This document shows positions 2,067-21,734 of a stretch of 64,000 nt of DNA, piece by piece. The stretch lies in IMG/VR virus record IMGVR_UViG_3300042090_002485, positions 32,001 to 96,000 of that record, one strand, 5' to 3'. The translations under genes were made by a program, and so were the position numbers. The DNA comes from a virus. The notes beneath the pieces were generated by a model that was not told where the DNA came from, did no database searches, and worked only from the letters and a program-made list of their open reading frames with translations. Position 1 is the stretch's first letter. Each line of letters begins with the position of its first letter.

Positions 2067-2939
2067 TCACCCGAGCGCGGGCGGGCCGCCGCTAGGCTGA
2101 CCCTTGCTCGCGTCCTCGATGTTCGTGCTGTCGACGGCGCCGTCGATCTGGTCGAACGCGCGACGGATGCGCTGTGGACCTTCGTCGCCAAAGCCGACGG
2201 GTGGCGATTTGACGGTCAGGCGCTCCTCGTAGGGGTTCGGCGTTCCGCCGGGTCCGCGTTGTTCCCAGGATGAGTGGCCGTCGGTGCCCCACATCTGCCA
2301 GTCGCCGAGCTTGGAGATGGCGAACATCTTCTCGAGGAGTGCCGCGCGGCGCGCGCGTAGCTTCGCGATGTTCAGGATCTCCGCGACTTTGTTGAGGCCG
2401 CCCGTCATCTGCCCGGGCTCGTCCGCGCTGTTGCGGATGCCCTCGTGGCGGAACAGGTCTGCGAATAGCGATGCCGCCTGTTCGTCGGCGGGCCGCCCAT
2501 CGCGCGCTCGCGCGAGCGAGCTGTCGGCAGTCGTCGCCGCGTGGTAGTGCGGGCTCGTTGACGGGTTGTCACCCTGGCTGGGGTCGCTGCCGAGCAGGCC
2601 CGCGTTGAAGTCGGCCGCCTTCTCCGGGATCCTCTTCGGCGCGTCGCACGAGCCGTAGTGCTTCGCGCGCCGGCACGTCGTGCACAGCTCGGCCGACAGC
2701 TTGCGCTTGGGCTCCGTGCGCGTCGAGCCCTGCTGGTGCGCGTCGAAGATCTGCGACAGCGATTGCGGCGTGGTCGGCGGCGCGAGGTTCGCTTGCGCGG
2801 TCTGCGGGATCTCGGTCGGGCTGCTCTTGGCGCGCAGCACGGCACTGCCGGCGACCGTCGGGTCGGACGGCGCGGCCCAGCCGAGCTTGTGCAGGGCTGC
2901 GAGTTGCCCGTCCGCGAACGCGATCTCGAGGCTGCTCAC
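2067..2939 (-). CDS. Virion (inner head) protein with leader motif and K-x-A repeats
   Basis: Starts MSSLEIAFADGQLAALHKLG and contains KLSA, KAAD, KVAE and KLG. In operon with 4-nt overlaps. Confidence 0.6.
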   Translation of the reverse strand: MSSLEIAFADGQLAALHKLGWAAPSDPTVAGSAVLRAKSSPTEIPQTAQANLAPPTTPQSLSQIFDAHQQGSTRTEPKRKLSAELCTTCRRAKHYGSCDAPKRIPEKAADFNAGLLGSDPSQGDNPSTSPHYHAATTADSSLARARDGRPADEQAASLFADLFRHEGIRNSADEPGQMTGGLNKVAEILNIAKLRARRAALLEKMFAISKLGDWQMWGTDGHSSWEQRGPGGTPNPYEERLTVKSPPVGFGDEGPQRIRRAFDQIDGAVDSTNIEDASKGQPSGGPPALG

Positions 2940-3322
2940 GGGGACACCACAGCGCCAGGCAGCGGCATCGACGAGGTTGCGTAGTCGTCGTCGTTGCGCT
3001 GCAGCGCACGGTCGATGACGCTGCGTTGGCGACGACCCTCATCTGCGGGTTCGCCGGCCTGGCCGCCGGCGCCGTCGGTCGACGTCGACGCACCCATGCC
3101 GACGTTGGCCGCGAGCTTCGCCGCGCCCGTTCCGATCTCGCCGGGCGACGCGCCGGGGGACACGGGGGACGGCGGCGCGGGCGGCGCGGGCGCGGCCGGC
3201 AGTCCGGGCGCCTTCACCGGCGACTTGATTTTCACTGAGCCGAGCGACGGCTGCGACGGCACGCTGAACGCAGCGAGCGCGACGCGCCCGCCCCGCTCGA
3301 ACATGTCGCGCAGCGCCGCCAT
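2936..3322 (-). CDS. Small Pro/Gly-rich virion protein with leader motif (128 aa)
   Basis: Start reassigned to MAALRDMFERGGRVALAAF; contains KLAA. Confidence 0.55.
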   Translation of the reverse strand: MAALRDMFERGGRVALAAFSVPSQPSLGSVKIKSPVKAPGLPAAPAPPAPPSPVSPGASPGEIGTGAAKLAANVGMGASTSTDGAGGQAGEPADEGRRQRSVIDRALQRNDDDYATSSMPLPGAVVSP

Positions 3323-3339
3323 GGTCGGGCCTCGCGCGA

Positions 3340-3534
3340 CTACGCGGTGCGGAACAGGGACTCGAGCACGCTTGCGGGGATGTTCCCCGGCGTGGCCGCC
3401 GCGGTCTTGGGCTTCTCGACGAGGCCGAGGTCCTGGGCCTCCTTCACGAGGTCGTCGATGTTCTTGTAACCAGCCTGCTCGAGGGCCTGCTGGGCGCCCC
3501 ACTCGCGGGCCGTCTTGAGGTGATTGCTGGACAT
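3340..3534 (-). CDS. Small virion protein with leader motif (64 aa)
   Basis: MSSNHLKTAREWGAQQALEQAGY...KEA...KTAA. The ATG lies 6 nt after a TATAAT. Confidence 0.6.
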   Translation of the reverse strand: MSSNHLKTAREWGAQQALEQAGYKNIDDLVKEAQDLGLVEKPKTAAATPGNIPASVLESLFRTA

Positions 3535-3539
3535 GCGGC

Positions 3540-3547
3540 AATTATAG
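3540..3547 (-). promoter_or_regulatory. Putative late promoter CTATAATT, leaderless spacing
   Basis: TATAAT, 6 nt, then ATG at 3534. Confidence 0.6.
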
Positions 3548-3551
3548 CCGG

Positions 3552-3839
3552 TCAGCCAATGACTTCCTGGCCCCATGTGCCGTCCGCGCGCCCAGGCGCG
3601 GCCCGATCGTACGTTGTGAAGTTGTCCCACAGCCAGTCTGGCATGTCAGCGCGCCACGCGCTCGCCGCGTCAGGCGGCGCGCCGTCGTCCGGCGTGTCGC
3701 GCTTGGCGTACTGGATGCGCTCGGTGCCGTGGCTCTGTTCGGGGCCGGGCGGCATGACGCCGACGTCCGCGCCCATCGGGCCCGCGAATTTGGCGAGTGC
3801 GGCGCGCGCGCCGGCGGTGAAGGTCTCGCGCAGCGTCAC
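3552..3839 (-). CDS. Small virion protein with leader motif (95 aa)
   Basis: GTG start overlaps the adaptor stop; MTLRETFTAGARAALAKFAG. Confidence 0.6.
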   Translation of the reverse strand: MTLRETFTAGARAALAKFAGPMGADVGVMPPGPEQSHGTERIQYAKRDTPDDGAPPDAASAWRADMPDWLWDNFTTYDRAAPGRADGTWGQEVIG

Positions 3840-4315: not shown

Positions 4316-4779
4316 CAGCGCACGAACTGCCGCTCGAGGCTGGCGACGACCTGGGCAATCTGCGCCGCGCCGCTCGCCGTCGTGATGATCTGGATGCCCT
4401 GGAATGGCAGCAAGACGGTCTTGAACCGCGCCTCGTCGAGCGCGATGAACGCGACGGACGTCGCGGCCTCGATGGTCATCTCCTCACCAGCGAGGATGGC
4501 CGGCGAGGCCGTGTTGACGGTTGCGGGGTCGAGGTTGACGAGCTTGATGGTGATGTCAGCCGAGCCGCCCAGGTCGACGTGGATCTGGCTGCAGACCAGT
4601 GGCTCGACCGTGTTCCAGTAGAACAGACCGCCGGCGGTCTGCGGCGTGTACTTGTAGATCGTGTAGTCCGCGCCGATCGGCGAGTCACCGGTGGGGAACG
4701 TGCCGTCAAAGAAGGCGCTCGACGTGATCCGCTGCTGGATCGCGGTGGCGGTCGCCATGGGGATGCGCGGCGTCGTCAT
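4315..4779 (-). CDS. Virion structural protein, unknown function
   Basis: Thr/Ala-rich beta-type 154-aa ORF in the capsid operon, with a TACAAT motif upstream. Confidence 0.5.
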   Translation of the reverse strand: MTTPRIPMATATAIQQRITSSAFFDGTFPTGDSPIGADYTIYKYTPQTAGGLFYWNTVEPLVCSQIHVDLGGSADITIKLVNLDPATVNTASPAILAGEEMTIEAATSVAFIALDEARFKTVLLPFQGIQIITTASGAAQIAQVVASLERQFVR

Positions 4780-4785
4780 GCACCC

Positions 4786-6849: not shown

Positions 6850-7212
6850 CTACGAACTGATGATCCAGGCGCCGAACGCGTCGTAAGCAGCATCGGCCGC
6901 TTCCTTTACGTTCTTGGGTTTGGTGGTCTCGTCCGAATCACGGTCCGTACCCGCGCCGAGCGGCGTGACCACGCCGCCCTGCTTGGCCAGCAAGTCCTCG
7001 ACGACGCCAAGCGACGCGTCGTCGGTCGCGGCGAGCTTCTGGCGGACGTCGTCCGTCATCTCCTCGCCGTGTGCCACGAGGTGAGCCGCCGCGATCTTCT
7101 GAACGCGCGCGTCGCGCGTCGCCTTGATCGCCGAGGTCTTCTCGCGCTCGGTCTGGTCGTAGTAATCCGCGAACGCGTCGACCAGTGCTGCGACCTTGAG
7201 GAGGTTAGCCAC
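6850..7212 (-). CDS. Scaffold-like K-x-A protein (120 aa, GTG start VANLLKVAA)
   Basis: Helical; KVAA, EKTSA, KIAA, KLAA and KEAA. Confidence 0.55.
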   Translation of the reverse strand: MANLLKVAALVDAFADYYDQTEREKTSAIKATRDARVQKIAAAHLVAHGEEMTDDVRQKLAATDDASLGVVEDLLAKQGGVVTPLGAGTDRDSDETTKPKNVKEAADAAYDAFGAWIISS

Positions 7213-7360
7213 GGGCCACCCCCAGCTTGCGGGCGAGCATGCCCAGACCTGCTGCCGCGACGAGTACACCAGCGGCCTTGGCGCGGCGCACATCCTCGCG
7301 ACGGACGTGTTCGGCACGCAGGTCCTGGGCAAGGGCGCGAAGCATCTCGGACTCCTTCAT
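7205..7360 (-). CDS. Small protein of 51 aa missing from the ORF track
   Basis: MKESEMLRALAQDLRAEHVRREDVRRAKAAGVLVAAAGLGMLARKLGVARG. ATGA overlap with the upstream stop; fills the operon gap exactly. Confidence 0.6.
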   Translation of the reverse strand: MKESEMLRALAQDLRAEHVRREDVRRAKAAGVLVAAAGLGMLARKLGVARG

Positions 7361-7569
7361 CGGGACCCCGGCAGGTCGGCGTAGCCGACGTCGATGGAGT
7401 CGTCACGGAGGTTGGCGGCGAGCGCGCGGAGGCCGCGCGCGACCTCGGTGCGGGGCTGGACCTCGGCTGTCTTGACGGCTTGGACCTCGTCCGCGCGCCG
7501 GCGCGCCGACGTTGCCGCGTCGGCGAGGACCTCATCAACGACGAGCGAGAGGTGACGGGTTGCGCTCAC
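7357..7569 (-). CDS. Small K-x-A protein (70 aa)
   Basis: Coupled overlaps on both sides; VKTAE. Confidence 0.55.
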   Translation of the reverse strand: MSATRHLSLVVDEVLADAATSARRRADEVQAVKTAEVQPRTEVARGLRALAANLRDDSIDVGYADLPGSR

Positions 7570-7841
7570 TGGGCGCCCCTGTGCTGGAGGGCGTGGAGCG
7601 CGTCGACGATCTGCGGGCCAGCAAGGCCAGTCGCAACGCCTGCACCGAATCCGACGTTGCCCGCGCGCTGACGGGCCTCCTCATCCCGCGAATGGGTGAG
7701 GCCGCTCGCGAGTGCACCACCCGCGAGCACGCCTGCGCCGCCGGCGAGCAGCGCGGGAACGAGCGCCGGGTAAGCGGCGACCTTCTCACGTGCTGCGCGC
7801 TCGAGGCGAGCGAGGACGTCGGTGTTCACGGCGGCCGACAT
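7566..7841 (-). CDS. Small glycine-zipper protein (91 aa)
   Basis: EKVAA followed by LLAGGAGVLAGGALA and GFGAGVATGLAG. Confidence 0.55.
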   Translation of the reverse strand: MSAAVNTDVLARLERAAREKVAAYPALVPALLAGGAGVLAGGALASGLTHSRDEEARQRAGNVGFGAGVATGLAGPQIVDALHALQHRGAQ

Positions 7842-7847
7842 GGCGAG

Positions 7848-8441
7848 TTAGCGCTGCGCCTCCGCGACGAGGTCGTTGGCGACCTTGAAGCCGGCGACGA
7901 ATGCCTCGCAGCCGAGCTTGTGGATCTGGGTGACCTGCGCGTTCCAGCCCGCGTCGAACGCGCGCTGGTGGAGGTCACGGATTGTGTCCGCTGCGGCGCG
8001 GTAGCCCTGCTGCGCGGCTTCCTTGACGAGGTCGGCGTTCGCCGCGGCGAACTTCTCGAACGTGTCGTCGGTTTGGCCGACCGACGCGGTCTTGACCTCG
8101 ACCGGCGGCAGCTGATCGGCGGCCTGCTTGTACTGCGCGGCGCGGGCCATGAAGCCGTCGCACACCGCGGCGCCGTAGGACTGCGCCTCCTTCATCAACG
8201 CCTCGTGCTCGGCCTTGCTCAGGTCGGCGGCGAGCTTGGTGAGGTCGTCGACCGGCGAGCCTGCGCCCGCGGTCTTGGTCGCCTCGGGCGCCGTCGCCTC
8301 TTTGAGGGCCTGCTTGAGACGCTCGCCGGCATCACCGGACGGAGCCGATGCAGCGGGGGCGGGCGCCGGAGACGGCGCGGGGGCGGACGCGGTCTTCACC
8401 GCGCCGTCCGTTACTGCCGAGAGTGCATGCGAGAGCTTCAT
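7848..8441 (-). CDS. Putative scaffolding/inner-core protein
   Basis: 197 aa helical with many K-x-A motifs (KTAS, KTAG, KLAA, KEA, KQAA, KTAS, KFAA, KEAA, KVAN). Lies between protease and capsid. Confidence 0.55.
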   Translation of the reverse strand: MKLSHALSAVTDGAVKTASAPAPSPAPAPAASAPSGDAGERLKQALKEATAPEATKTAGAGSPVDDLTKLAADLSKAEHEALMKEAQSYGAAVCDGFMARAAQYKQAADQLPPVEVKTASVGQTDDTFEKFAAANADLVKEAAQQGYRAAADTIRDLHQRAFDAGWNAQVTQIHKLGCEAFVAGFKVANDLVAEAQR

Positions 8442-8465
8442 GGGTGGCCGTCTCCGTTACGAGGG

Positions 8466-8475
8466 AAATGATAGG
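8466..8475 (-). promoter_or_regulatory. Putative late promoter CCTATCATTT (scaffold-capsid unit)
   Basis: Intergenic, 26 nt before the ATG at 8441. Confidence 0.6.
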
Positions 8476-8503
8476 AAAGCGGGTCCTCAAAAACAAAACG
8501 CCG

Positions 8504-10261
8504 TCAGTGGCGACTCGTGATGATGTTGCCGAGCTTCTCCGCGACGTCGCCGAGCGCGTCGGACGCGCGTACGTCGACGCCAACGCGCGCGCTGCGCGGC
8601 ACCGCGTTCTCGACGAGGTTGACGATCGACATCATCGACGCGGTCTTCGCCGACAGCTCGGTGATGTCGGGAATCGCGTAGCCCTCGTCGGTCTGCATCG
8701 TGCCGCCGGTGCCATGGTTGCCGATCGCGCGCGCGCCGAGCACGCCTGCGGTCGCGGCGAGAGGCAGGCGGAACTTGCGCAACCACGGGAACGCGCCGAG
8801 CGCCTTGTAGCCGCCGAGCGCAAGCGCTCCGCCGCCGAGTACCTGGTTGCGCATGCGCGCGCGAGTCACTGCATCCTGCGCGTCGATCGCGGCACCGCGC
8901 GTGGTCTCGTAGGGTCCGACGTGCAGCACGTCCGTGGTCGGCGCGGCGTCCTGCCGGAGGCCGACACCTTCGGGAACGAGACGCCGGTAGAGCATCTCGC
9001 CCGCGCCTGCACGCTTCTGCGCCGCGCGCGCGAAGCCGTCCATCAGCGCGGCTGCGACCTTGTGCGACTCGAGCACGCCGCTGTCCAGCAGTTCGTCCAG
9101 CAGGTCAGGGCGGTCGCCGAACAGCTCGAGTGCGAAGCGGCCGGCCGCCGCGAACTTCTCGAACTCGGCCTCCGTGTGCGGCATGCACGTGTTGCTGCAG
9201 CCCGCGAGCTTGCTCGTGGACAGGTACATGAACTCACGGTCGGTGAGCGTGACGCCGTTGGCCGCCGCTGCACTGAGCGACTCGCCGAGCGGGTAGCCGA
9301 GCAGGCCGGCCACCTGGATGCGCGGCGCGCCTGCGAGCTTGGGCGCGAGGTGGTCCTTCAGCTTGACGATGAACGAGCGTTCGTCGGGCGCGAGGTGGCT
9401 CGTCGCGATCGGCTCGCCCTGGATCACCTTGTCGATGTCGGAGAGCTTCTGCACCGCGGCGCCCTTGAGCGCGAGCGCGTCGGATTCCTCGCCGAGCAGC
9501 GCCGACAGGCGAATCTCGGGCGTCGCTTCGGCGACCTTCTTGAGCGTGTAGCCGGTGCGGTCAGCCGGGCGGAACACGCGGCTGATGTCGAAGAAGTCGG
9601 GTGATGGGTTGTGGACGTAGTCCTTGAAGCCGTTCGCGTCGACGACGTTCATCGCGAACTTGACGTGGTCGCAGTAGTCCGCACGCGTCGGCGCCTCGTT
9701 GCCGCAGCGAGCGCAGACGTCGTACTTGATGCGACAGCCCATGCTGACGGGCACGAACTCGCCGTCGGCCGCGCGCTTGACCCACTCGGGGTCCTTGGCG
9801 TCGTCGACCGAGACCAGCAGCTCGACCCGGTGCATGCGCGGGTTCCAGAACGCCTTCTTCACCACGCCCGAGGCCTTCGCCGGGTCGCGGTTGGCGTGGT
9901 GCTGGAACGCGTGTGCGGGGTTGGTCTCGAACGAGTGGTAGTGCTTGGTCAGCTCCTGGCCGGGCGCAACGAACCAGCGGCGGTCGGCGGAGGCGATCTT
10001 GCCGCGCGCGGGCACGGGGAACTCGGGAAAGCCGTCGCCGTTGCGGTTGGGGCCGTAGGTCTCCTCGCCGCCCATCGCGCACAGCAGCATCGCGGTCTTG
10101 CCGGCCTCGGGCGTGACGCTCTTGATGTAGTCGAGCGCCTCGGACGCGTGCTTGGTGATGCGGCTGGTGTCGACCGAGCGGCCGCCGTTCCATGGCAGGA
10201 TGATCTGGGCGGTCAGCTCGCCGGTCGGGAAGAACTCGGGCAGCTCGATGAGCTTCTTCAC
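8504..10261 (-). CDS. Prohead (maturation) protease with long C-terminal K-x-A/glycine-zipper extension (585 aa, GTG start)
   Basis: NRNGDGF, HAFQHH.N, RVELLV, VSMGC..KYDVCARC...CDH and FFDISRVFRPAD match the phage prohead serine protease pattern. GTGA overlap at 10258-10261. Confidence 0.7.
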   Translation of the reverse strand: MKKLIELPEFFPTGELTAQIILPWNGGRSVDTSRITKHASEALDYIKSVTPEAGKTAMLLCAMGGEETYGPNRNGDGFPEFPVPARGKIASADRRWFVAPGQELTKHYHSFETNPAHAFQHHANRDPAKASGVVKKAFWNPRMHRVELLVSVDDAKDPEWVKRAADGEFVPVSMGCRIKYDVCARCGNEAPTRADYCDHVKFAMNVVDANGFKDYVHNPSPDFFDISRVFRPADRTGYTLKKVAEATPEIRLSALLGEESDALALKGAAVQKLSDIDKVIQGEPIATSHLAPDERSFIVKLKDHLAPKLAGAPRIQVAGLLGYPLGESLSAAAANGVTLTDREFMYLSTSKLAGCSNTCMPHTEAEFEKFAAAGRFALELFGDRPDLLDELLDSGVLESHKVAAALMDGFARAAQKRAGAGEMLYRRLVPEGVGLRQDAAPTTDVLHVGPYETTRGAAIDAQDAVTRARMRNQVLGGGALALGGYKALGAFPWLRKFRLPLAATAGVLGARAIGNHGTGGTMQTDEGYAIPDITELSAKTASMMSIVNLVENAVPRSARVGVDVRASDALGDVAEKLGNIITSRH

Positions 10262-10809
10262 GGCAGCAGGCTCCGCAGCAGGCGCGCGCCGTCGCCGCGG
10301 TGGCGCACGAGCAGCACGAGCGCGGCGTGCTTGGCGTCCGGGTCGGACAGGGCGCACGCGGCCTCGAGGACATCGTCGACGAGGATCGCCGCCGCGAGCT
10401 TCTGTGGGGACGACAGTGCGCCGGCCATATCGTCGTTGGTCGCGGGGCTCGGGCGGCTGAGCTTGCTCTTGAGCAGCTCGCCGAGGCCCTGCATGCCGCC
10501 GACGCCGGCGGCCGTCATCAGCGCCTGGTTACGCGCGTCACGCAGCAGCTCGTGACCCTGGTTGCCGGCGTCGCGCGCGAGTAGATGGCCGACGCCGAGC
10601 GCAGGGATGCCCAGGCCGACACCCCAACCCAGGCCGCGCTGCAGCGCGGACATCGCTGCGGGGTCGATTGCAGCGCGCTTGAACATGCCGAACGCGGCGA
10701 AGTCAGCAAGCGCGGCGCGCTCGAGCAGCGTGGCCGACGGCGGGCGCGCCGACGCGATCTTCTCCGCGAGGAGGACCGACGTCTCGAGGGCCTGGTTGAG
10801 CGCGGTCAT
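10258..10809 (-). CDS. Inner-head K-x-A protein with Gly-rich hydrophobic helices
   Basis: KIAS, KRAA, KLAA and KHAA; GLGWGVGLGIPALGVG. Confidence 0.55.
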   Translation of the reverse strand: MTALNQALETSVLLAEKIASARPPSATLLERAALADFAAFGMFKRAAIDPAAMSALQRGLGWGVGLGIPALGVGHLLARDAGNQGHELLRDARNQALMTAAGVGGMQGLGELLKSKLSRPSPATNDDMAGALSSPQKLAAAILVDDVLEAACALSDPDAKHAALVLLVRHRGDGARLLRSLLP

Positions 10810-10813
10810 GGGG

Positions 10814-11083
10814 TCACCGCGCCGGTGCGACGGTGCGCCGTAGCAGCTCAGCGAGCGCGGAGTCCTCAGCGATCTTGGTGCCGGTCACCGCCGCGAGCGC
10901 GCCGAGGCCGTCGGCGATTGCGCGCGCTTCCTTGCGGCGGCGGTACGCGCGCTCGCCGATGGTCTTGACCGCGACGCCGATGTTCAACTCGGGGACGCCG
11001 AGCATCGCGCCGGCGATCTTGTGCAGGCCGTGGTGCGCGACGGCCGCGGTGACGGAGGGCGGGATGAGGTCATCGAGGGTCAT
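10814..11083 (-). CDS. Small K-x-A protein (89 aa, start MTLDDLIPP)
   Basis: GAAAGGA SD upstream; KIAG, KEA and KIAE. Confidence 0.55.
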   Translation of the reverse strand: MTLDDLIPPSVTAAVAHHGLHKIAGAMLGVPELNIGVAVKTIGERAYRRRKEARAIADGLGALAAVTGTKIAEDSALAELLRRTVAPAR

Positions 11084-12188
11084 CGTGAGTCCTTTCACCG
11101 ATAGGCTGCAGCTCGTACGCCTTGGGTTGCGGAAACAACCATTCGGACAAGGCGCCTCCACCGGCACCGAGTGCGCCGCCGAGGCCTCCGCCGATGAGTG
11201 CGCCGCGTGCGCGATGTTTGTCGTCGGACAAGGCTCCGCCGAGCGCCCCCATTCCGGCACCCGTCAGGCCACCGAGCGCCGTGGACTTCAGGATGTCGGT
11301 GGGTCGGTCTTTGCGCGCTTGCTCGGCTGCCATTTCGAGCAGTTGTTTGATGGCCTGGTCGTGCGACATTTCGGCCGCGCGCTTGTCACCGCCGCCGGTC
11401 ACGGCGCGCTCGGCGTCGGCGAGCAGCTTGATCGACATGTAGTCCGGGCCCGCGCCAGTCATCACGGCCTGGCGGAGGAACGAGCGCACCGCGTTCTCGT
11501 CGGTGGACAGCACGGGCGCGAATCGCGTCATGCTGTGGTACGCGCCCATCAGCGTGGCGTCGTCGGCACCGGCGAGCACCGAGTCGGTCTTCTTGAGCTT
11601 GCCGACGATGGCCTCGCGCGCGGCCTGGTCGCCAGCATGCCCGACGGCCTCCACCGCCTTGGCGGCCATGTCGCGGAGCAGGCCGAAGCCGGCCTTGCCC
11701 GCCTCGGCGCCGAACGCCTTGGCCGCTGCGCCGCCGCCGATGCCGAGCGTGTCCTGCCGCTCGCCCAGCTCGCGGCCGAACAGCTTCTTCTCGACGAGCG
11801 AGCTGAGGCCGTGGGCGACACCCTTGCCGGGCGCCGCGCCGATCTCGCCCAGGCTGCCCTTCGCGCCCTCGAGGAGCCCGCCGCCGATGGCTTGGCCGGC
11901 GCCCATCGCGCCGCGGCCCGCGGCTCCTGCCGCCGCGCCCGCCGCCGCCTTGGGGTTGTGGAACAGCTGCGCGAGCGGCAGCGCGAGCTGCATCGGCAGC
12001 GCAGCGGTCTTCGGCAACGACGCCTCATCGACGGCGTGCTCGGTCGAGTGCGCGCGCTCGAGCGCCCTCTCGACGATGCTGGGGATCATCGCGCCGACGG
12101 CGAGCGGCAACATCACGCCAGCGCGCTTCTGCGTGTGGCGCTCGAGCGCACGACGGGTGGTCAGCGCGAGGACGTCGCTCAGCTGCAC
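11070..12188 (-). CDS. Gly/Ala-rich inner-head protein with glycine zippers
   Basis: KRAG, KTAA and KRAA; C-terminal LGGLTGAGMGALGG and ALIGGGLGGALGAGGG. Confidence 0.55.
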   Translation of the reverse strand: MQLSDVLALTTRRALERHTQKRAGVMLPLAVGAMIPSIVERALERAHSTEHAVDEASLPKTAALPMQLALPLAQLFHNPKAAAGAAAGAAGRGAMGAGQAIGGGLLEGAKGSLGEIGAAPGKGVAHGLSSLVEKKLFGRELGERQDTLGIGGGAAAKAFGAEAGKAGFGLLRDMAAKAVEAVGHAGDQAAREAIVGKLKKTDSVLAGADDATLMGAYHSMTRFAPVLSTDENAVRSFLRQAVMTGAGPDYMSIKLLADAERAVTGGGDKRAAEMSHDQAIKQLLEMAAEQARKDRPTDILKSTALGGLTGAGMGALGGALSDDKHRARGALIGGGLGGALGAGGGALSEWLFPQPKAYELQPIGERTHDDPR

Positions 12189-13102
12189 TGGATCCTCACG
12201 AATTCCGCGCCGCGGCGCAGCTTGTCAGCTTCGGCCGCGATGCTGGCGAGCTTCTCGAACAGGCGCGTCGCCTCGTTCTCGGTGACGAGGTGGCGGTCGA
12301 CCAGCGCGGCGTGCTTGGCGCAGATGTCTTCGTGCGTCAGGGGCGGCAGGCGCCGCGACTCGCGCACGAGGTTGAGGACGACGGCGCCGAACGCGTCGCC
12401 GCGCAGCGCCATCGCGTCCTTCTCGAAGGCCTCGAGCGACGGGCCGCCCCAGGCGCGGCTGAGCGAGCGCTCGAGGGCTCCGAACGTGTCCTCGAACAGC
12501 CACTCGGCCTGCTTGTACTGGTCCTCGAGCACAGAGGCGAACTTGCGCCGGCGCTCGCCGCGGAACGCCGCTTCCTTGGCCTCGTCCTTCTTCGACTCCT
12601 TGGGCGGCTCCTTCTTCTCGGGCTTGTCCTTCTTGCCGTCGTCGTCCTTGGACTTCTGCTTCTCGCCCTTGGGGAACGGCCCGTCGTTGTCGTCGTCGAT
12701 CGGTGGTTCGCCCTTGGGCTCGCCGCCCTGGCCGCTGGCCATCATGGCCTCGCCTTCGCCGATCTCGTTGGGCAGCGGCCCCTCGTCGCCGTCGGGCTCA
12801 GCGTGCGGCGGTTCCTCGTGCGGAAGGTCGACGCCGCCCATGATGTGCTGCAGGACCTGGCGCGGGTCGATTGGGTCGAACTCGCCGGTCATGTCGGGCA
12901 CGCCCTGCTGCTTCTGTTGTTCCATCAGCCGCAGGAACGCCATCGTGTTCGCGGCCTGGACAAGGCGCGCGACCTGATCGGGGTTGAGCTGCCCCTGTTG
13001 CGCTTCCATCGCGGCCATGTCGGCGAGCTTCTCGCCGCTCATGAAGCGATCGACCACCCGCTGGGCCATTTGGTCGAAGTCCTTCTCTTGGTAGGCGCGC
13101 AT
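12179..13102 (-). CDS. Inner-head K-x-A protein with charged linker
   Basis: EKLA, a K/D/E-rich stretch ending in AKEAA, KFAS, KQAE, KHAA and KLAS. Confidence 0.55.
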   Translation of the reverse strand: MRAYQEKDFDQMAQRVVDRFMSGEKLADMAAMEAQQGQLNPDQVARLVQAANTMAFLRLMEQQKQQGVPDMTGEFDPIDPRQVLQHIMGGVDLPHEEPPHAEPDGDEGPLPNEIGEGEAMMASGQGGEPKGEPPIDDDNDGPFPKGEKQKSKDDDGKKDKPEKKEPPKESKKDEAKEAAFRGERRRKFASVLEDQYKQAEWLFEDTFGALERSLSRAWGGPSLEAFEKDAMALRGDAFGAVVLNLVRESRRLPPLTHEDICAKHAALVDRHLVTENEATRLFEKLASIAAEADKLRRGAEFVRIQCS

Positions 13103-13779
13103 CAGTGGACGATCTCCTCGCGGGGCACGGCGGCTCCCGCCTCATGCGTCAGCTCGCGGAACTTGAGCTTGGCGAGCAGGTCGGAGAGGTTGCCGCCGGT
13201 GCCGCCATCGGAGACGAGCGCGGCCGCGTTCATCGCGGTCTTCAGCATGCTGTGCGCGGCCGAGCCCTCGGTGCTGTTCAGCGTGTTCATGCGCAGCGTG
13301 CGCATGCTGCGGAAGTAGGCCTCGCGCATCGTCTGCTCTTGGACGTGCGACGCAGAGAGCTTGGACTCGCGACCGGAGTGGTGCGCGAGCGCCTCGACGC
13401 CGTCGAAGTGGGTGGCGACCGCGAGCATGGCGCGACCGAGCGGGCTGCCCTCGTAGTTCCGCACCCATCGCAGCAACTCGAGTCGGTCGCGGAAGTTGGA
13501 CAGGTTGCAGCACAGGTGGCGGAATGCCGGCAGCACAGCGAGCGAGACGCCGATGTCCTGGTGGATGCGCGTGTCCTCCGCCCCCGCGATGATCCAGGCC
13601 TGGACCTGCTCACGCTCGAAGAACGGGTCTTCATAGAGGTCGACGACGCGCTCCATGACGTCGGAGAACACGACGCCGTTGAGGTGGCGCCACAGCGCCT
13701 GCTCGTGCTCCTGCTTCGGCTCTTCGGCCATACGCATGACCGCGAGGTAGCGCGAGTCGGGCTTGCGCTCACGCCGCAT
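13102..13779 (-). CDS. Hypothetical protein (225 aa)
   Basis: Normal composition, coupled within the operon. Confidence 0.55.
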   Translation of the reverse strand: MRRERKPDSRYLAVMRMAEEPKQEHEQALWRHLNGVVFSDVMERVVDLYEDPFFEREQVQAWIIAGAEDTRIHQDIGVSLAVLPAFRHLCCNLSNFRDRLELLRWVRNYEGSPLGRAMLAVATHFDGVEALAHHSGRESKLSASHVQEQTMREAYFRSMRTLRMNTLNSTEGSAAHSMLKTAMNAAALVSDGGTGGNLSDLLAKLKFRELTHEAGAAVPREEIVH

Positions 13780-16700
13780 GATCGTCCGGCTCCTTTACGG
13801 CCTGGACGCCGCGGGACAGGCGCAGGACGAGGTCGCCCAGGCCCTTGAACGACGACTGCATGTTCTCCTCGATGCCCGCGAACGCGGCCTCACCGATCTG
13901 CTGCTTGAGATCAGGCTCCTGCATCCACAGCGTGAGCTGCACGCGGGCGAGGTTGTCGACGGCCTTCTCGAGGTTGGGGAGGTACTGCGCGACGACGCCG
14001 TGCAGCTCGGGTGACTGCGCGAGCGTGGCGACGGCCGCCGCGTCGAACATGTCGGCGGAGCGCATTTGCGCGACCTGGTCGAGGAACTGCGGGTTGATCT
14101 CCTGCCCCATCGCCTGCGCGTTTGGGCCGTCGGAGGGCATCATCGCCGACGGCGGCGGCTGTCCGCCGCCCATCGCCGGATCCATACCGCCCATGCCGCT
14201 CATGCTCGGGTCGCCACCGGGCATGCCACCCGACATGCCGCTCATCATCGACGGGTCCATGCCAGGCTGCCCACCGCTGGGCATGCCGCCGCCCATGCCG
14301 CCGAACATCCCGCCCATCGACGGGTCGGCGCCGCCGCCCATCATCGACGGGTCGCCGGCGCCGGGAGGGAACGGGCCGCCCGGAGGCATGCCCGGAGGCA
14401 CGGCCGCGCCCATCGACGGATCCTGCGGCGGTTGGCCCATACCCGCGGTCATGCCGGGAGGCATGCCCGGCCCACCCGTCGCGAGGTTCATCGACGACGG
14501 AGGCGCACCCATTGCTTGCGACTGCACGGACGCGGCAGGCGGTGCGCCGCCGCCGATCTCGCTCGAACGCTGCAGCAGCTGTTGGATCGTCTGTTGACGG
14601 TCCATCAACTTCTGCATCTCGTGCTGGATCGCTTGGTCCATCTCCATCGCTGCGAGGTCGAGCGGCGCCGGCGGGGGCGGAGCAGGCGGTGGGCCCATTG
14701 CTGCCATGGCCGCGTCTTGTCCGAGGTTCGGATCGCCCATGCTCGGATCGCCGCCCGGCGGACCCGCGTCAGCGCCGCCGTTCGGCGGAGCCTTCTTCTT
14801 CGGCTTGCTATCGGACTTTTTCTTGTCGTCGCTGTCATCGGCACCGAGCTTGCCCAACAAGCCACCTAACGCACCGCCCATCATTGCACCGCGCTGCGGT
14901 GCTCCGGGTAGTTGCGGAGCTTGGGGTTTCTTGGCGAGCAATCCCTTGAGAGGACCTCCGAGTGATGCAGGACCGCCCGAACCTCCCATCGCACTGCTGT
15001 CGACGAAAGACGAGGTTTTGTCACCTGCAGCGATCTTGTCGAGGCGGATTTGTGCGGTCGCGAGCTGCGCGCGCGTCGCGATCCACGCCGTTGCCGAATG
15101 GTCGGACGCGGCCTTCGTGAGCAGTGCCTCGGCGTCGTCGACGGAGATGTTGCATCCGTGAGCGAGCTTCTTGAGCGCGGGAACGAAGCTCAGCGGAGCC
15201 ATTCCGTTGATCGAGAACTGCTTGGCGCCCGCGTCCTTGATCGCGACCTTCTTCGCGCCCACGGCCGAGAGCATGCTCGAGACGCACGCCTGCAGGTCGA
15301 GCGCGGAGCGATACCAGCCGCGCTCGTCGAGCTTCTCGCCGAGCGGGATCCAGATGAAGTCCGGCGGGAGGTAGACGACGTCGGCGCCCTTGGGCATCCA
15401 GATCGCGCCGTAGGGGTGCGTCGGGTCGGTGCAGACGGTCTTCTCCGGGTAGCCGCCAATCCCGCTGATCTTCAGGCGGCGCACGCCGTCGCTGCCGGTC
15501 GACATCGACTTGACCTCGACGGGCACCGTTGCCTGGTAGACCGAGTGGAGCTTGCGGACGAAGAAGCCCTTGCCCGTCCGCGGTGCACCGTCGACCTTGT
15601 CGAACAGGCGTTCCTGGAGCCGGCCGGCAACGTCGTCAGCGACGGAGCTGCGCCCGACCAGACGATCCGTCATGAGGTACTTGCCGTCGCCGAATGCGGC
15701 GAGGTACGGCTTCGCGGTGTAGTCGCGCTTGGTCGCGTAGTCGGCCTCGTTCGGGCGCCCGACCGGGTAGACCTTGTTGTTGGGCCCGAAGTTGTCGGGG
15801 TCGCGGTACGAGTTGTCGACGACGGGGTTGTGCGCCGGGATCGCCGGGCGCCGGCCGTAGCGCGTGCCGTCGTCGAGCAGGTCGATCGGATCGGGCATCA
15901 CGAACGCGTAGCGCTCGCCGCCGTCGGAGCTGTAGAGGCAGTACACGCCCGGCTGGTTCGGTTCGGTCCAGTGCGCGAACGGCTGCTCCTGCACCGCCAT
16001 GTTACGGGTCAGACGCTCGTCCTTGGCGGCAAAGCCCTTCTTGCGCACGCCCGCGTAGGCCTCGCCGGCCTGGTCACCGAAGATGCGGCGGAAGTCGGTC
16101 GGCGTGTTGTCCTTGTCGGCGATCCACAACGCACCGCCAGACAACTGCTTGGCCGCGACCTTCTCGAGGCGCGGCTGGACCGCGCGCGACAGCGCCGCGA
16201 CGCCGTAGAACGCCGCTGCCGTCTTGAGCAGGCGGGGGTGGCGCTTGAGCGTGGCGACGAATGCGGTCTTCACCCGGTTGGGTGCGGCTTCGAGCATGCC
16301 GATGAACATCGGCGCGGGCTCGGCCGCTTCCTTTTCGCGCGCGTCGAGGTACTCGCGCGAGACGACGCGCGAGGCGTCGTAGATCGCCTTGGGCATCCAC
16401 GCCGCGTACGAGAACCGGCCCGTGATCGGCGGCACCACGACGTTGCGGATGTCGACGTCGGTGTAGAGCGTCTCGGGGGTCTTGATGCCCTTGCCCAGCG
16501 CCGAGAGCGCTGTCTTGTCGATCTCGTCCAGCCAGCCCTTGGTCAGCGGCAGGAAGATGTTGAGGGTCTTGTGGAAGAAGACCTCGAGCGGCTTGATCGT
16601 GTTGTCGACGAGCACGACCGGGATGTAGATCGGCTGGTCGTTGCGGAGCACGATGAACGCGCCCACGCCCGCTCCCTTGTCGACGTCGGCCTTGATCACC

Positions 16701-16858
16701 TTGAAGGTGACGACGTCCTGCATGACGTCGGGCATCTTCGACGACAGGAGGTTGTAGGCCATGTCGGACATGCCCTGCTCGAAGAGCTGGGCCTCCTGGT
16801 CCGGGCCGGCGTTCATCCCGGCCTGGAACTGCTGAGTGCGCGGGCTGAGCGGCGGCAT
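13769..16858 (-). CDS. Large virion protein (1029 aa) with K-x-A motifs and Pro/Gly/Met low-complexity C-terminal region
   Basis: EKEAA, KTAA, EKVAA, KIAA and KLGA; repeated DPSM(M)G units; GAGG SD. Confidence 0.6.
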   Translation of the reverse strand: MPPLSPRTQQFQAGMNAGPDQEAQLFEQGMSDMAYNLLSSKMPDVMQDVVTFKVIKADVDKGAGVGAFIVLRNDQPIYIPVVLVDNTIKPLEVFFHKTLNIFLPLTKGWLDEIDKTALSALGKGIKTPETLYTDVDIRNVVVPPITGRFSYAAWMPKAIYDASRVVSREYLDAREKEAAEPAPMFIGMLEAAPNRVKTAFVATLKRHPRLLKTAAAFYGVAALSRAVQPRLEKVAAKQLSGGALWIADKDNTPTDFRRIFGDQAGEAYAGVRKKGFAAKDERLTRNMAVQEQPFAHWTEPNQPGVYCLYSSDGGERYAFVMPDPIDLLDDGTRYGRRPAIPAHNPVVDNSYRDPDNFGPNNKVYPVGRPNEADYATKRDYTAKPYLAAFGDGKYLMTDRLVGRSSVADDVAGRLQERLFDKVDGAPRTGKGFFVRKLHSVYQATVPVEVKSMSTGSDGVRRLKISGIGGYPEKTVCTDPTHPYGAIWMPKGADVVYLPPDFIWIPLGEKLDERGWYRSALDLQACVSSMLSAVGAKKVAIKDAGAKQFSINGMAPLSFVPALKKLAHGCNISVDDAEALLTKAASDHSATAWIATRAQLATAQIRLDKIAAGDKTSSFVDSSAMGGSGGPASLGGPLKGLLAKKPQAPQLPGAPQRGAMMGGALGGLLGKLGADDSDDKKKSDSKPKKKAPPNGGADAGPPGGDPSMGDPNLGQDAAMAAMGPPPAPPPPAPLDLAAMEMDQAIQHEMQKLMDRQQTIQQLLQRSSEIGGGAPPAASVQSQAMGAPPSSMNLATGGPGMPPGMTAGMGQPPQDPSMGAAVPPGMPPGGPFPPGAGDPSMMGGGADPSMGGMFGGMGGGMPSGGQPGMDPSMMSGMSGGMPGGDPSMSGMGGMDPAMGGGQPPPSAMMPSDGPNAQAMGQEINPQFLDQVAQMRSADMFDAAAVATLAQSPELHGVVAQYLPNLEKAVDNLARVQLTLWMQEPDLKQQIGEAAFAGIEENMQSSFKGLGDLVLRLSRGVQAVKEPDDHAA

Positions 16859-16873
16859 TATGGGTGACCTCGG

Positions 16874-17050
16874 TCAGGACGTCGGGAAGGAGACGACCTT
16901 CGGAATGGGAGCGTTGGGTGTGCTGGGCCCGGTGCCCAGCTCTCGGGTCTTCTGCGCCTTGAGCGAGGCCAGTGTCGGCATCGCGATCTCGGCAAGCTTG
17001 TCTTCGACGGCGCGAAGCCCGGCGAGGCGGATGTGGCGAGGAAGGCTCAC
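16874..17050 (-). CDS. Small protein with leader-like motif (58 aa, GTG start)
   Basis: VSLPRHIRLAGLRAVEDKLAE...; GTGA overlap with the upstream stop. Confidence 0.5.
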   Translation of the reverse strand: MSLPRHIRLAGLRAVEDKLAEIAMPTLASLKAQKTRELGTGPSTPNAPIPKVVSFPTS

Positions 17051-18369
17051 GCCGCGCTGCGCTGGGCGGCGTTGATGCGCTCGATCTCGGCCTTGAGGGC
17101 CGCCTTCTTCTCCTCCTCGTGCTTCATCCACGGCGGCAGGTCCTTGTCCTTGTCCTTGTCCTTGCCGTCGTCGTCCTTCTTGTCCTTGTCGTCGTCCTTC
17201 TTCTCGCCCTCCTCCTTCTTCTCCATGAAGGGCGGAAGCTCGGCCGACTTGGTGCCCTGGTTGCCTCCGCGCCCGTCGTAGGCGCCGGGCCGCGAGTGCG
17301 TCGCCTCGGGGGTGTGGTTCTTGTAGCCGTCCGTGCGCGAGCCCGGCGGGACCGCCGCGGGCGTCGCCGCCGCGGTCTTCTCGGACGCCTCCTTCTGGAG
17401 GCCCGTCAGGTAGTGCGCCTTCTCGACGACGTTCAGGCCCATGCACGCGCGGACCGCGGCGACTTTGCGGTCGTCGTCGAACGACGCGGGCAGGTACTCG
17501 GCGACCTCGGCAGCCGTTTTCTTGAACAGCGCGATGTAGGGGTCCTCCGCCGCAGCCTTCGCCGAGTGCTGCTGGACCGAGTTCGACTTGTCGTCGGTGC
17601 GGGCGGGGGCGTTGGGCTGCGTGGTCTCGCGGCCGACGACGGCCGGGCCCTTCACCTGCTTCATCACCTCGCCGAGGCTGCCGACGCCGGCGACACCGAA
17701 CGTCGCATAGCCCGACGGGCGCTGCTCGGCGTCCATCTTGGCCTCGGCGGAGCCCATCGCCTTGTTGCCCTTGTCGCCGCCGAGGATTGTCGAGCCCTCA
17801 GCCTGCTTGAACAGGCTGCGCAGCGTCTCGGACGCGGTGCGCGACTGCTCCTGCGGCGAGTTCGACTTGTCGTCGCTGCGCGCCGGCTTGTTCGGGTTCT
17901 CTTCTTCCTTGCCCACCGCACCCGGCTTTGTGTCGACCTCGGTCTTGCCGAGGCTGTCCGTCGCGTAGCCCGGCGGGCGCTGCTCGACGTCCATCTTCGT
18001 CTCGCCGGCCGGCGACTGCTTCTCCTCGTTGCCCTTGTCGCCGCCCTCGATGGTCGAGCCCTCGGCGAGCTTCGTCATCAACTGGATGACGCTGTGGTTG
18101 GCGAGCTTGTGCACGTCCTCCCACGAGCTGAGCTTGTTGAAGGACGCCGCCTTGAACCCCGGCCGGCCCTTGAACCAGTCAGATGCCGCGATGACCTCGT
18201 TCGAGACCTTGACCACGACGTCGCGACCGATGTCCCGGCTCAGGTCGATCTCGACGCGGTCCGCGATGAGGTCCGCGACCTTGTGTGCGGTGGTCTCGTC
18301 GGGGAACGAAGCGCGGCCTGCGTTGACCAGCGCGGTCTGGATGCCACGAACGAAGGCGTGCTTGAACAT
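17047..18369 (-). CDS. Inner-head protein with leader motif and two ~90-aa tandem repeats (440 aa)
   Basis: Start reassigned to MFKHAFVRGIQTALVNAG (AGGAG SD). Repeats begin KLAEGSTIEGGDKGN and KQAEGSTILGGDKGN. Confidence 0.65.
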   Translation of the reverse strand: MFKHAFVRGIQTALVNAGRASFPDETTAHKVADLIADRVEIDLSRDIGRDVVVKVSNEVIAASDWFKGRPGFKAASFNKLSSWEDVHKLANHSVIQLMTKLAEGSTIEGGDKGNEEKQSPAGETKMDVEQRPPGYATDSLGKTEVDTKPGAVGKEEENPNKPARSDDKSNSPQEQSRTASETLRSLFKQAEGSTILGGDKGNKAMGSAEAKMDAEQRPSGYATFGVAGVGSLGEVMKQVKGPAVVGRETTQPNAPARTDDKSNSVQQHSAKAAAEDPYIALFKKTAAEVAEYLPASFDDDRKVAAVRACMGLNVVEKAHYLTGLQKEASEKTAAATPAAVPPGSRTDGYKNHTPEATHSRPGAYDGRGGNQGTKSAELPPFMEKKEEGEKKDDDKDKKDDDGKDKDKDKDLPPWMKHEEEKKAALKAEIERINAAQRSAA

Positions 18370-18396
18370 GCGGCTATCTCTCCTGGGGAACGGGTG

Positions 18397-18405
18397 AATG
18401 ATAGG
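18397..18405 (-). promoter_or_regulatory. Putative late promoter CCTATCATT
   Basis: Intergenic, upstream of the AGGAG SD and ATG at 18369. Confidence 0.6.
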
Positions 18406-18432
18406 GCGGCATTTGGCAATTCCCAACGCGGG

Positions 18433-18645
18433 TCAGCCGAGCGCCTTGGCCTTGGGCGCGCCTGCAGCGATCGCAGGTGATGCAGGTGCTGGGGCAGCCG
18501 CTGTTGCAGGTGGTGCGTGGTTCGTCGCGGCTTGGCCGCTGAGCATCGGGTTGTAGCCCGCAGCGCCCTGCATCATGTTGGCGAGCTTGAAGTGCGCGAG
18601 GGCGCCTGCGCAGCCCGCCTCATACGAGTCCTTGAGAGTTTTCAT
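18433..18645 (-). CDS. Small protein with leader motif (70 aa)
   Basis: MKTLKDSYEAGCAGALAHFKLAN, then a Pro/Ala-rich tail. Confidence 0.6.
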   Translation of the reverse strand: MKTLKDSYEAGCAGALAHFKLANMMQGAAGYNPMLSGQAATNHAPPATAAAPAPASPAIAAGAPKAKALG

Positions 18646-18660
18646 GGCGTCTTGTCCCTG

Positions 18661-19101
18661 TTAGAAGAGGCGTCCGACTGCGTGTCCGAGGCCGCGACCT
18701 AGCGCCATCCCGATCGGCGCGACAGCGAGTCCGCCTGCTTGACCGCCGTACATCATGCCCGCGAGACCGCCGATGCCGCCGAGCAGGCGCGCCGCGCGGC
18801 CCTGCTCGGGGTCGCTGTGCATCATGCCGGGAAGCGCAGCCAGCGTGCCGAGGGTGCCGATGCGGCCCAGCGTCTGGCGAACAGGTTGGCCGGGCAGCGT
18901 CGGCCACAGCACCTGGCGCGGGTGCAGCGCGCCGCCCGCGCGGAACGCGGCGGGCCCCTGCACGAACGCCTCCGGTCCCATGCCGACCAGGCCGAGGTTG
19001 CGTGCCGCGCTGATCCCGGTGTCAATGAGGTTGGCCTCCTTGAAGCCGAAGCGCGCGCGGGCTGCTGCCGCGCCCGCTTCGTGTGCACTGGCGATGGTCA
19101 T
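18661..19101 (-). CDS. Glycine-zipper protein with leader motif (146 aa)
   Basis: MTIASAHEAGAAAARARFGFKEAN; LLGGIGGLAGMMYGG and IGMALGRGLGHAVG. Confidence 0.6.
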   Translation of the reverse strand: MTIASAHEAGAAAARARFGFKEANLIDTGISAARNLGLVGMGPEAFVQGPAAFRAGGALHPRQVLWPTLPGQPVRQTLGRIGTLGTLAALPGMMHSDPEQGRAARLLGGIGGLAGMMYGGQAGGLAVAPIGMALGRGLGHAVGRLF

Positions 19102-20879: not shown

Positions 20880-20880
20880 G

Positions 20881-21273
20881 TCACATCCCGGGGTAGCCGC
20901 TGCCGCCGCCCATCATCATCTGTTGCTGACGGGCCTGTTGCTCGCGCTTTGCCTGGTTGTGCCGATGGAGCATGTAGAGCGCGCCGCCGGCGAGCAGCGA
21001 CGGCGCGAGCGTGCGCATGTTGCCGAGCGCGTTCTGGCGTGCCTCCATGCCGAGCGCGGGCGTTGCTGCGCCGCCGAGACCTTGGCGGAGGTTGCCGTAA
21101 AGGTCCTTCGCAGCGCCCATCTGTCCCTGTCCGAACGCCTTGGCACGGTCCATCAGGCCGGGCCCCGCGGGCGCGGGCGGCGCTGCGGGCGTCGACATGA
21201 ACGCGGGGTCGTTGGCGAGCTTGAAGAAGCGGATGGCGGCATCGCGGCCGCGCGCGGTGGAGTCGTTCAGCAT
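20881..21273 (-). CDS. Small protein with leader motif and hydrophobic helix (130 aa)
   Basis: MLNDSTARGRDAAIRFFKLAN; SLLAGGALYML. Confidence 0.6.
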   Translation of the reverse strand: MLNDSTARGRDAAIRFFKLANDPAFMSTPAAPPAPAGPGLMDRAKAFGQGQMGAAKDLYGNLRQGLGGAATPALGMEARQNALGNMRTLAPSLLAGGALYMLHRHNQAKREQQARQQQMMMGGGSGYPGM

Positions 21274-21734
21274 CAGAACACCGTTCCGATTGATGTGGGC
21301 TGGCCCATGTCGCTGAGCCGGTTCGCGGTATCACCTGCCGACAGGTTCGACGGCGCGCCCCACGAGGTGGAGCGGTCGAGCGGGTCGCGCGCAGACAGCT
21401 GGTCGCCGGGTGACAGCGGTGAGTCGAGGCCGCTGAGCGCGGCTGCGAGGTCGTCGGCCGAGCCTAGGCTCGCGCGTTTGGCGTTGCGCTCGTGCTCGGT
21501 CTTGAACGCCTCGTCCCAGCCGTGGAACTCGCGGCGCGGGATCTTCAGGCGGATCTCGGCGGAGGCTTCCTTGAAGCCGAACTGCTCGAGCGCGGCGGCG
21601 GCGCCGAGCACGAACGAGTGCTTGACCTTCTCGGGGAGCTTCTTGTCCTTGGGCGTCGCATCCTCGAACTCCTTGGCCAGTTCGGGGTGGCGGGCGTACA
21701 TGAACCGCCGCTGCGCCTGGGACTTGAAGGGCAC
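21273..21734 (-). CDS. Small protein: PFKSQAQRR mini-domain plus leader motif (153 aa, GTG start)
   Basis: MPFKSQAQRRFMYARHPELAKEFE...KLPEKVK, then HSFVLGAAAALEQFGFKEAS. The start is 5 nt after TATAAT. Confidence 0.6.
   Translation of the reverse strand: MPFKSQAQRRFMYARHPELAKEFEDATPKDKKLPEKVKHSFVLGAAAALEQFGFKEASAEIRLKIPRREFHGWDEAFKTEHERNAKRASLGSADDLAAALSGLDSPLSPGDQLSARDPLDRSTSWGAPSNLSAGDTANRLSDMGQPTSIGTVF

Follow-up and report, generated by a model that had tools for sequence, protein, structure and literature searches.

We analyzed a 64,000-nucleotide stretch of viral DNA from IMG/VR record IMGVR_UViG_3300042090_002485 (hereafter the window) and identified a shared N-terminal motif, or tag, in otherwise unrelated proteins encoded by the late structural genes of this uncultured phage, a member of the RNA polymerase-packaging type. 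The tag is a two-part N-terminal element, comprising a ~17-residue helix with the consensus h-K-x-A-[YF]-x-x-G-x-x-x-A-L-x-x-[FL]-G and a short [K/R]-x-[A/G] element that usually accompanies it. A preliminary description of the window had drawn attention to this N-terminal pattern, which proved to be both real and more widespread than claimed: 13 tagged proteins were found in the genome, nine from the earlier list and four outside the window. The best explanation is that the tag is a prohead-targeting propeptide that resembles the capsid-targeting sequence (CTS) of phage T4 and has its own cleavage code. We give this reading an even chance of being correct; under it we infer docking of the tag, its partner, its cleavage, the location of the tagged proteins in the virion and their ejection. 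Genome coordinates below refer to a 145-kilobase (kb) IMG/VR-type phage contig, in which the window occupies bases 21402–85401.

A common N-terminal motif in thirteen structural-block proteins

A 17-column position matrix was trained on nine of the previously listed instances. In a leave-one-out analysis, each of these nine ranked 0–11 among 38,976 windows of the proteome. The preliminary description had named a lack of enrichment over shuffled sequences or over replication-gene N-termini as grounds for refutation; the motif stood out from shuffled proteomes and from the proteins outside the structural block. In the first comparison, the listed instances scored 29–38 bits with the full matrix, whereas the maximum in 50 shuffled proteomes was 17 bits. 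The same matrix detected three instances outside the window that were untouched by training (29.0, 24.4 and 20.2 bits), and a 13th (genome 18367–18765) was obtained by a hidden Markov model (HMM) search after its start codon had been corrected. Scores of real instances thus scanned ranged over 20–38 bits, above the shuffle maximum. In the second comparison, tags were present in 13 of 51 proteins of the structural block, which occupies the minus strand of the genome from ~5,000 to 51,000 and consists of late structural genes, and in none of the 120 other predicted proteins (Fisher p = 4e-8). Nine of the ten N-termini that had been listed matched both the matrix and the HMM. The tenth, a 58-amino acid (aa) open reading frame at 16874..17050 (minus strand), was rejected as a tag bearer, having no HMM match at E ≤ 5 and only a K-L-A-E site. 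The conserved Ala residues of the tags were encoded by GCC, GCG and GCA, and because of this synonymous variation at the invariant Ala, the tag is conserved at the protein level. A nucleotide-level repeat or RNA signal as the origin of the motif was ruled out by the same codon differences.

The tag started at residue 2–6 in 11 of the 13 proteins and was internal in two (residues 39 and 146); the tag at residue 39 was located behind a 38-residue mini-domain. Small residues at positions 4, 8 and 12 are predicted to line one face of the helix, which would suit tight packing on a partner helix. With regard to location, the earlier assignment of the tagged genes to a head operon proved too narrow, because four of them were found among tail and baseplate genes. 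Many tagged proteins contained hydrophobic Gly/Ala-rich stretches followed by charged residues, a feature that would fit targeting to a destination other than the capsid, either a phage chaperone or the host membrane, as for proteins that act in lysis, exclusion or envelope remodelling. We consider such targeting very improbable: the hydrophobic moment of the tags was low to moderate (0.07–0.56), with no signal-peptide-like hydrophobic core, every genome that we examined had all of its tagged genes in the late structural block and on the structural strand, and the tags were linked to the K-x-A pattern of head-core proteins described below.

The view that the tagged proteins are otherwise unrelated held up well: when the tag was removed, no similar pair was detected among the 13 remainders (best blastp E value, 0.2). 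These remainders were rich in Pro, Ala, Gly and Ser (fraction 0.34–0.69, compared to 0.31 in the proteome), and several of the proteins possessed Gly-zipper-like hydrophobic stretches. No match in Pfam, PHROG or NCBIfam was found for any tagged protein tested, and ten further tagged proteins of relatives had no match in Pfam. A search of the tag profile against PDB sequences returned chance-level matches only.

Occurrence and mobility of the tag in related phages

A search with the capsid protein identified 124 related IMG/VR stretches. The only cultured relatives, all of them distant, were three Vibrio phages and Salmonella phage Arash, whose capsid protein was 40% identical. The tag HMM gave 10–11 matches per genome in five close relatives, and every one of them was on the structural strand. 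When 51 instances were aligned, the G and the A four positions after it (A(+4)) were invariant; in wider sets A(+4) was present in ~90% of sequences, and the G was invariant in all alignments. We further surveyed the surroundings of the gene for the RNA polymerase (RNAP) subunit beta' in 82 related loci with an iterated HMM (cut-off, ≥8 bits) and detected 117 tag matches, all of them on the gene strand; the opposite strand gave none. Nearly all of these matches (105 of 117) adjoined a start codon, within a few residues of it, and the consensus derived from relatives was [LFIV]-K-x-A-[YH]-x-x-G-x-x-x-A-L-x-x-[FL]-G. Distant relatives, whose beta' proteins were 45–50% identical, contained the motif in a diverged form. 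Outside the tag, each of the tagged families was 40–67% identical across related phages, and such preserved identity indicates that they are real genes.

Modularity was indicated by a relative with a 198-kb genome (G007), in which a 631-aa protein begins with the tag, continues with K-T-A-Q and a Pro-rich linker, and then combines a LigD-type 3'-phosphoesterase with an ATP-dependent ligase and a GNAT acetyltransferase (assigned with Pfam and NCBIfam). Close orthologues of this fusion protein were also tagged. The phosphoesterase domain itself was located behind different N-terminal regions in many other relatives. Thus, one functional domain carries the tag in some phages and other N-termini elsewhere, suggesting that the tag can be joined to, or be absent from, the same domain. 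The fusion protein is a candidate injected repair or anti-defence enzyme. As a sign that the tag could carry a foreign protein into the capsid, this natural fusion is suggestive only. The preliminary description had proposed a modular packaging tag that loads diverse cargo; a modular tag on diverse proteins is supported by several findings, as the tag is N-terminal, occurs only in the structural block, is conserved in >80 related contigs and is carried by unrelated families and by the enzyme fusion. The loading of cargo is weighed in the next section.

An additional N-terminal element, a mini-domain of ~36 residues with the pattern M-P-F-K-S-x-A-Q-R-R...T-P-K-G-K-K-L-P-E, was observed at window 21626–21740 (minus strand), where it precedes the tag of family E, and also at L142:8031, L136:7655, L160:8405 and others. 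It always began at residue 2. Some relatives lacked the mini-domain, and the tag in them was then N-terminal. In distant relatives, the mini-domain headed ~510-aa proteins containing a LigD phosphoesterase. A Pfam search with the mini-domain gave no match, and it may be a second N-terminal module.

Tagged genes were arranged in tandem runs (four at 2067–3839, three at 17047–19101, two at 20881–21740, and two pairs outside the window), and their remainders were of low complexity, where homology decays fast. Both features would be expected from common descent alone, by which one small gene was duplicated in tandem and the N-terminal helix survives as the slowest-evolving remnant, with no addressing role. 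This appears improbable, as within orthologous families the tag evolved no slower than the remainder, and only the pattern at key positions persisted across 13 families and distant phages. Moreover, carriers of the tag included an acidic repeat protein of 440 aa (family C) and the multi-domain enzyme of 631 aa, and the occurrence of the same enzyme domain with other N-termini indicates that the tag moves as a module.

The K-x-A element, the prohead protease and a possible packaging route

The tags had been described as usually running into K-x-A/G. In this genome, [K/R]-x-[A/G] indeed followed the helix directly in 10 of the 13 tags; in relatives, approximately half of the surveyed tags had no [K/R]-x-A within 12 residues. 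We counted K-x-A-[S/A/N/G] in every predicted protein and derived the expected numbers from shuffled sequences. The ratio of observed to expected sites was 3.0 in the structural block and 1.35 elsewhere. The density was 1.34 per 100 aa in 13 head-core proteins (window 6850–18369) and 0.17 in all other proteins, an approximately 8-fold difference. Individual proteins with many such sites included the prohead protease (10 observed, 1.3 expected), the scaffold-like protein (8 and 1.2) and family C (8 and 1.7), as well as two head-core proteins of 183 and 160 aa with four sites each (~0.45 expected in each). The strict pattern was absent from the portal, the beta'-C subunit of RNAP, the capsid protein and the tail proteins tested, and the 1804-aa RNAP protein was not enriched (2 observed, 2.8 expected). 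A maturation-protease site would be expected to be distributed in this way. There is a precedent in T4 and giant phages, in which the scaffold, core proteins and the protease itself are cut at multiple sites (PMC5694885).

In 49 orthologues of the scaffold-like protein, K16 and A18 of the first site were invariant, and the K and A of three other sites, including K56/A58, were nearly so. Low-confidence segments of its AlphaFold2 (AF2) model (residues 13–20, 56–59 and 116–122) coincided with three K-T-A-[S/G] sites. The preliminary description had also noted copies of the tag inside this protein, and these could not be confirmed: the tag HMM gave a median of −0.7 bits on the 49 scaffolds, compared to a 95th percentile of 1.7 bits for shuffled sequences, and hhalign aligned another segment (E value, 0.03). 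Around an invariant Gly, the scaffolds do carry a short stretch of the form A-[YF]-x-x-G, followed by I-H-K-x-A-S. Scaffold mimicry by the tag is an attractive idea, but the likeness was without statistical support and was not counted in its favor. In the capsid protein, a G-R-x-K-E-A sequence at residues 28–33 was invariant in 31 orthologues, and it may be a maturation site at which ~33 N-terminal residues are removed.

The protease is encoded next to the scaffold-like protein. An AF2 domain model of its residues 96–340 (predicted local distance difference test score, 72) was compared with 48,161 chains in a structural search. The best two matches were the proteases of varicella-zoster virus (VZV; Z 7.3, root-mean-square deviation (rmsd) 2.8, 90 aligned residues) and T4 gp21 (Z 6.5, rmsd 3.0, 103 aligned residues), and the cytomegalovirus and Kaposi's sarcoma-associated herpesvirus proteases ranked lower. 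According to this model, the protease has the fold of herpesvirus assemblin and T4 gp21; the Z values are moderate and the families are those expected. A Foldseek search with the model gave no match at E ≤ 0.001. His 27 and Ser 78 of the domain, a candidate catalytic pair, were invariant in 28 orthologues. Prediction of a complex of the capsid protein, the scaffold and the tag, with an alignment for each, yielded a score of 0.01, which gives no answer and is uninformative either way.

A packaging route can be proposed in which the helix of the tag would dock the protein onto the scaffold or core of the assembling prohead and the shell would then close around this core. The prohead protease with its predicted assemblin fold would subsequently cut at K-x-A sites, freeing the cargo from the tag, and the same enzyme would chop the scaffold, itself and other core proteins at K-x-A. 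The matured cargo would remain in the head and would probably be ejected into the host. Such cargo would comprise small Pro/Ala/Gly-rich proteins, some of them Gly-zipper-like, and, in relatives, at least one nucleic-acid-repair/acetyltransferase enzyme. The T4-like targeting and subsequent removal that the preliminary description had suggested thus receive indirect support from the enrichment of K-x-A-[SANG] in the head core, its position in predicted scaffold linkers and the assemblin/gp21 fold of the protease, and the packaging and the cut themselves stay at the level of proposal.

Several observations weigh against this route. Known gp21-type proteases cut after Glu (PMC5694885), and K-x-A would therefore represent a different specificity. 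K-x-A-A arises naturally in Ala-rich helices, the baseline excess over shuffled sequences in other proteins was 1.35-fold, and the many tags of relatives that have no K-x-A nearby also count here. Within a family, the tag was no more conserved than the remainder of the protein, and its persistence across families was limited to the pattern at key positions. Arash and Vibrio phage D69, both cultured relatives, had no tag, even with a broader HMM. When 50,697 phage records were searched by tblastn with families C and E, neither gave a match, and no homologue of either was found in a cultured phage. In addition, the RNAP subunits, which are the only cargo backed by proteomics in a relative, carried neither the tag nor an enrichment in K-x-A, and the tag is thus not the sole route into the head. 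The location of four tagged genes among tail and baseplate genes also counts against the route.

Two of these points, the tail location and the absence of K-x-A from about half of the relatives' tags, favor an alternative in which the tag is a permanent assembly or oligomerization helix. In that case, the tagged proteins would bundle through G-x-x-x-A with each other or with a hub to build a complex in the tail lumen, a conduit for ejection or an internal body, with the tag retained and K-x-A forming part of the binding motif. Tight helix packing classically involves such a pattern, an invariant G-x-x-x-A flanked by aromatic and aliphatic residues, and the Gly-zipper-like segments of several tagged proteins are typical of membrane-active ejection proteins. 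However, the extreme preference of the tag for the N-terminus is more propeptide-like than bundle-like, and the placement of K-x-A-[SANG] in flexible scaffold linkers and its concentration in core proteins, including the protease, are a better fit to cleavage. The tag on a nucleic-acid enzyme in one relative also argues against a permanent helix. On balance we regard this alternative as unlikely, though the likeliest of the three rivals. If the targeting propeptide is taken to its fullest form, an uncultured RNAP-packaging clade would use a transferable G-x-x-x-A helix and a K-x-A cut site, recognized by an assemblin-fold protease that does not cut after Glu, to fill its heads with a variable repertoire of at least a dozen proteins destined for the host, among them membrane-active peptides and the phosphoesterase-ligase-acetyltransferase. 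This wider proposal is possible but less likely than not.

Known systems share parts of this arrangement. Herpesvirus assemblin cuts the scaffold at (V/L/I)-x-A-S, between A and S, and the element released is the C-terminus of the scaffold. The protease fold (with VZV as the top match) and the A-S site are similar to what we describe, as K-x-A-[S/A/N] resembles the latter, but the virus is eukaryotic and its enzyme frees a scaffold C-terminus rather than an N-terminal cargo tag. Cargo-loading peptides of encapsulins are short and transferable, direct diverse cargo into a shell with the HK97 fold, are usually C-terminal and are not known to be removed by a protease or to involve a portal or DNA. 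The tag differs from them in its N-terminal location, its consensus and the particle, which is a tailed-phage head with a portal.

The closest parallel is T4, whose internal proteins have N-terminal targeting propeptides of 10–19 residues that are removed by gp21 (PMC9026906, PMC5694885). Like the tag, the T4 CTS (of IPI, IPII, IPIII and Alt) is a short N-terminal element common to divergent proteins of a phage with a gp21-fold protease, is directly followed by a processing site (putative in our case), and is found on enzymes as well as small proteins (PMC9026906, PMC5694885). The two share no sequence similarity and differ in size, with a 17-residue helix here and 10 residues in T4. The presumed site also differs: it is K-x-A-[S/A/N/G] here and L/I-x-E in T4 (PMC9026906), and no L/I-x-E is present in the tag consensus. 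Furthermore, 13 or more families are tagged per genome here, and targeting and cleavage were established experimentally in T4 and are proposed for the tag. The giant phages phiKZ, 201phi2-1 and SPN3US also package a multisubunit virion RNAP and process many inner-head proteins with a gp21-like protease (PMC5694885). In SPN3US, the paralogues gp53 and gp54 have identical N-termini, and one ejection protein of these phages (gp47) has a propeptide followed by a transmembrane segment (PMC5694885). In contrast to the tag, propeptides of giant phages are mostly >100 residues, are cut at A/S/G-x-E and have no common helix motif across many families.

T4 establishes the principle, and no description was found in Pfam, PHROGs, NCBIfam or the literature searched of this motif and its size, of so many tagged families, of the presumed K-x-A code or of the clade. 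To our knowledge, a detailed account of the choice of proteins for packaging and injection is confined to T4 and does not extend to giant RNAP-packaging phages. If the targeting function is correct, the tag would allow a sequence-based listing of injected proteins across a whole uncultured clade and would add to T4 another, independent case of the CTS principle, one in which the protease specificity differs. It could further serve as a ready-made handle and is a candidate tool with which proteins of choice might be loaded into these capsids.

Genomic setting and individual proteins

The phage contig has a G+C content of ~66%. In order of descending coordinate, the minus-strand genes of the window encode a portal-like protein, the 1804-aa RNAP, an endonuclease VII-like protein, small proteins, the beta'-C subunit and more small proteins, followed by the head-core block (with the protease and the scaffold-like protein inside), the major capsid protein and further small proteins. 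In Arash virions, two RNAP subunits are among the most abundant proteins and 116 proteins were found in particles (PMC10585845). The Arash orthologue of beta'-C is gp216, which is abundant in virions (PMC10585845). The coordinates of tagged proteins and of the principal neighboring genes are shown in Table 1.

Table 1. Tagged proteins and principal structural genes (window coordinates unless genome or locus is given)
Feature	Location	Strand	Tag core	Matrix score (bits)	HMM E value	Remarks
Family J, 290 aa	2067..2939	-	residues 4-20 (DNA 2880-2930)	30.4	1.7e-10	orthologues keep the tag
Family G, 128 aa	2936..3322	-	residues 4-20 (DNA 3263-3313)	33.8	1.2e-11	
Family D, 64 aa	3340..3534	-	residues 6-22 (DNA 3469-3519)	34.8	6.1e-12	
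Family F, 95 aa	3552..3839	-	residues 3-19 (DNA 3783-3833)	32.4	1.3e-10	tag followed by K-F-A-G
Family C, 440 aa	17047..18369	-	residues 2-18 (DNA 18316-18366)	33.9		acidic, repeat-rich
Family B, 70 aa	18433..18645	-	residues 4-20 (DNA 18586-18636)	38.5	1.9e-13	tag followed by K-L-A-N
Family I, 146 aa	18661..19101	-	residues 3-19 (DNA 19045-19095)	29.4		tag followed by F-K-E-A-N; Gly-zipper-like C-terminal half
Family L, 130 aa	20881..21273	-	residues 2-18 (DNA 21220-21270)	30.3	1.7e-10	tag followed by K-L-A-N
Family E, 153-155 aa	21273..21740	-	DNA 21576-21626	37.7		P-F-K-S-x-A-Q-R-R mini-domain, tag, F-K-E-A-S
Tagged protein outside window	genome 9565-10125			29.0		
Tagged protein outside window	genome 9245-9565			24.4		
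Tagged protein outside window	genome 18762-19487			20.2		
Tagged protein outside window	genome 18367-18765					found by HMM, corrected start codon
Tagged 631-aa fusion of a relative	L131:11299-13194, same as L177:6340-8232	-				between two virion-RNAP genes
Major capsid protein, 312 aa	5392..6330	-				40% identity to annotated Arash major capsid protein
Scaffold-like protein, 197 aa	7848..8441	-				8 K-x-A-[SANG] sites, three of them K-T-A-[S/G] in predicted linkers
Prohead protease, 585 aa, presumed K-x-A enzyme	8504..10261	-				phrog_18299 'head maturation protease', E 5e-8; itself contains 10 K-x-A-[SANG] sites
RNAP beta'-C subunit, 592 aa	19101..20879	-				untagged; PHROG RNAP beta-subunit families
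RNAP beta/beta'-N protein, 1804 aa	22348..27762	-				untagged; PHROG RNAP families
Portal protein, 589 aa	28171..29940	-				synteny and N-terminal resemblance to annotated Arash portal gp204, by eye

The multisubunit RNAP of this phage is unusually split: the 1804-aa protein matched both beta and beta' PHROG families, and the separate 592-aa protein matched beta' families. The endonuclease VII-like gene (window 21741–22376; phrog_2914, E value 4e-22) is located between the RNAP gene and tagged genes and may be a mobile nuclease insertion. Another protein of the head block (372 aa, window 11070–12188) had a YMGG-like Gly-zipper near its C-terminus (Pfam E value 5.5e-5, below the curated cut-off).

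Among the tagged proteins, family C possesses two internal repeats of ~85 residues, a tail rich in Lys, Asp and Glu, and 8 K-x-A sites. Its gene follows that of beta' in nearly all relatives, and it looks more like a second scaffold or core protein than cargo. Searches of family I in the ESM Atlas returned unnamed phage clusters only, the nearest cluster with a Pfam family being Gly-zipper_YMGG, which we treat as a lead only. Finally, the proteins encoded at genome 9565–10125 and at window 20881–21273 and 7566–7841, the third of which was matched by eye only, had a common arrangement of a Gly/Ala-rich hydrophobic stretch followed by H-x-x-[NQ]...R-[RE]-Q-[RQ]. In these three small proteins, this arrangement resembles a membrane anchor followed by a charged stop.

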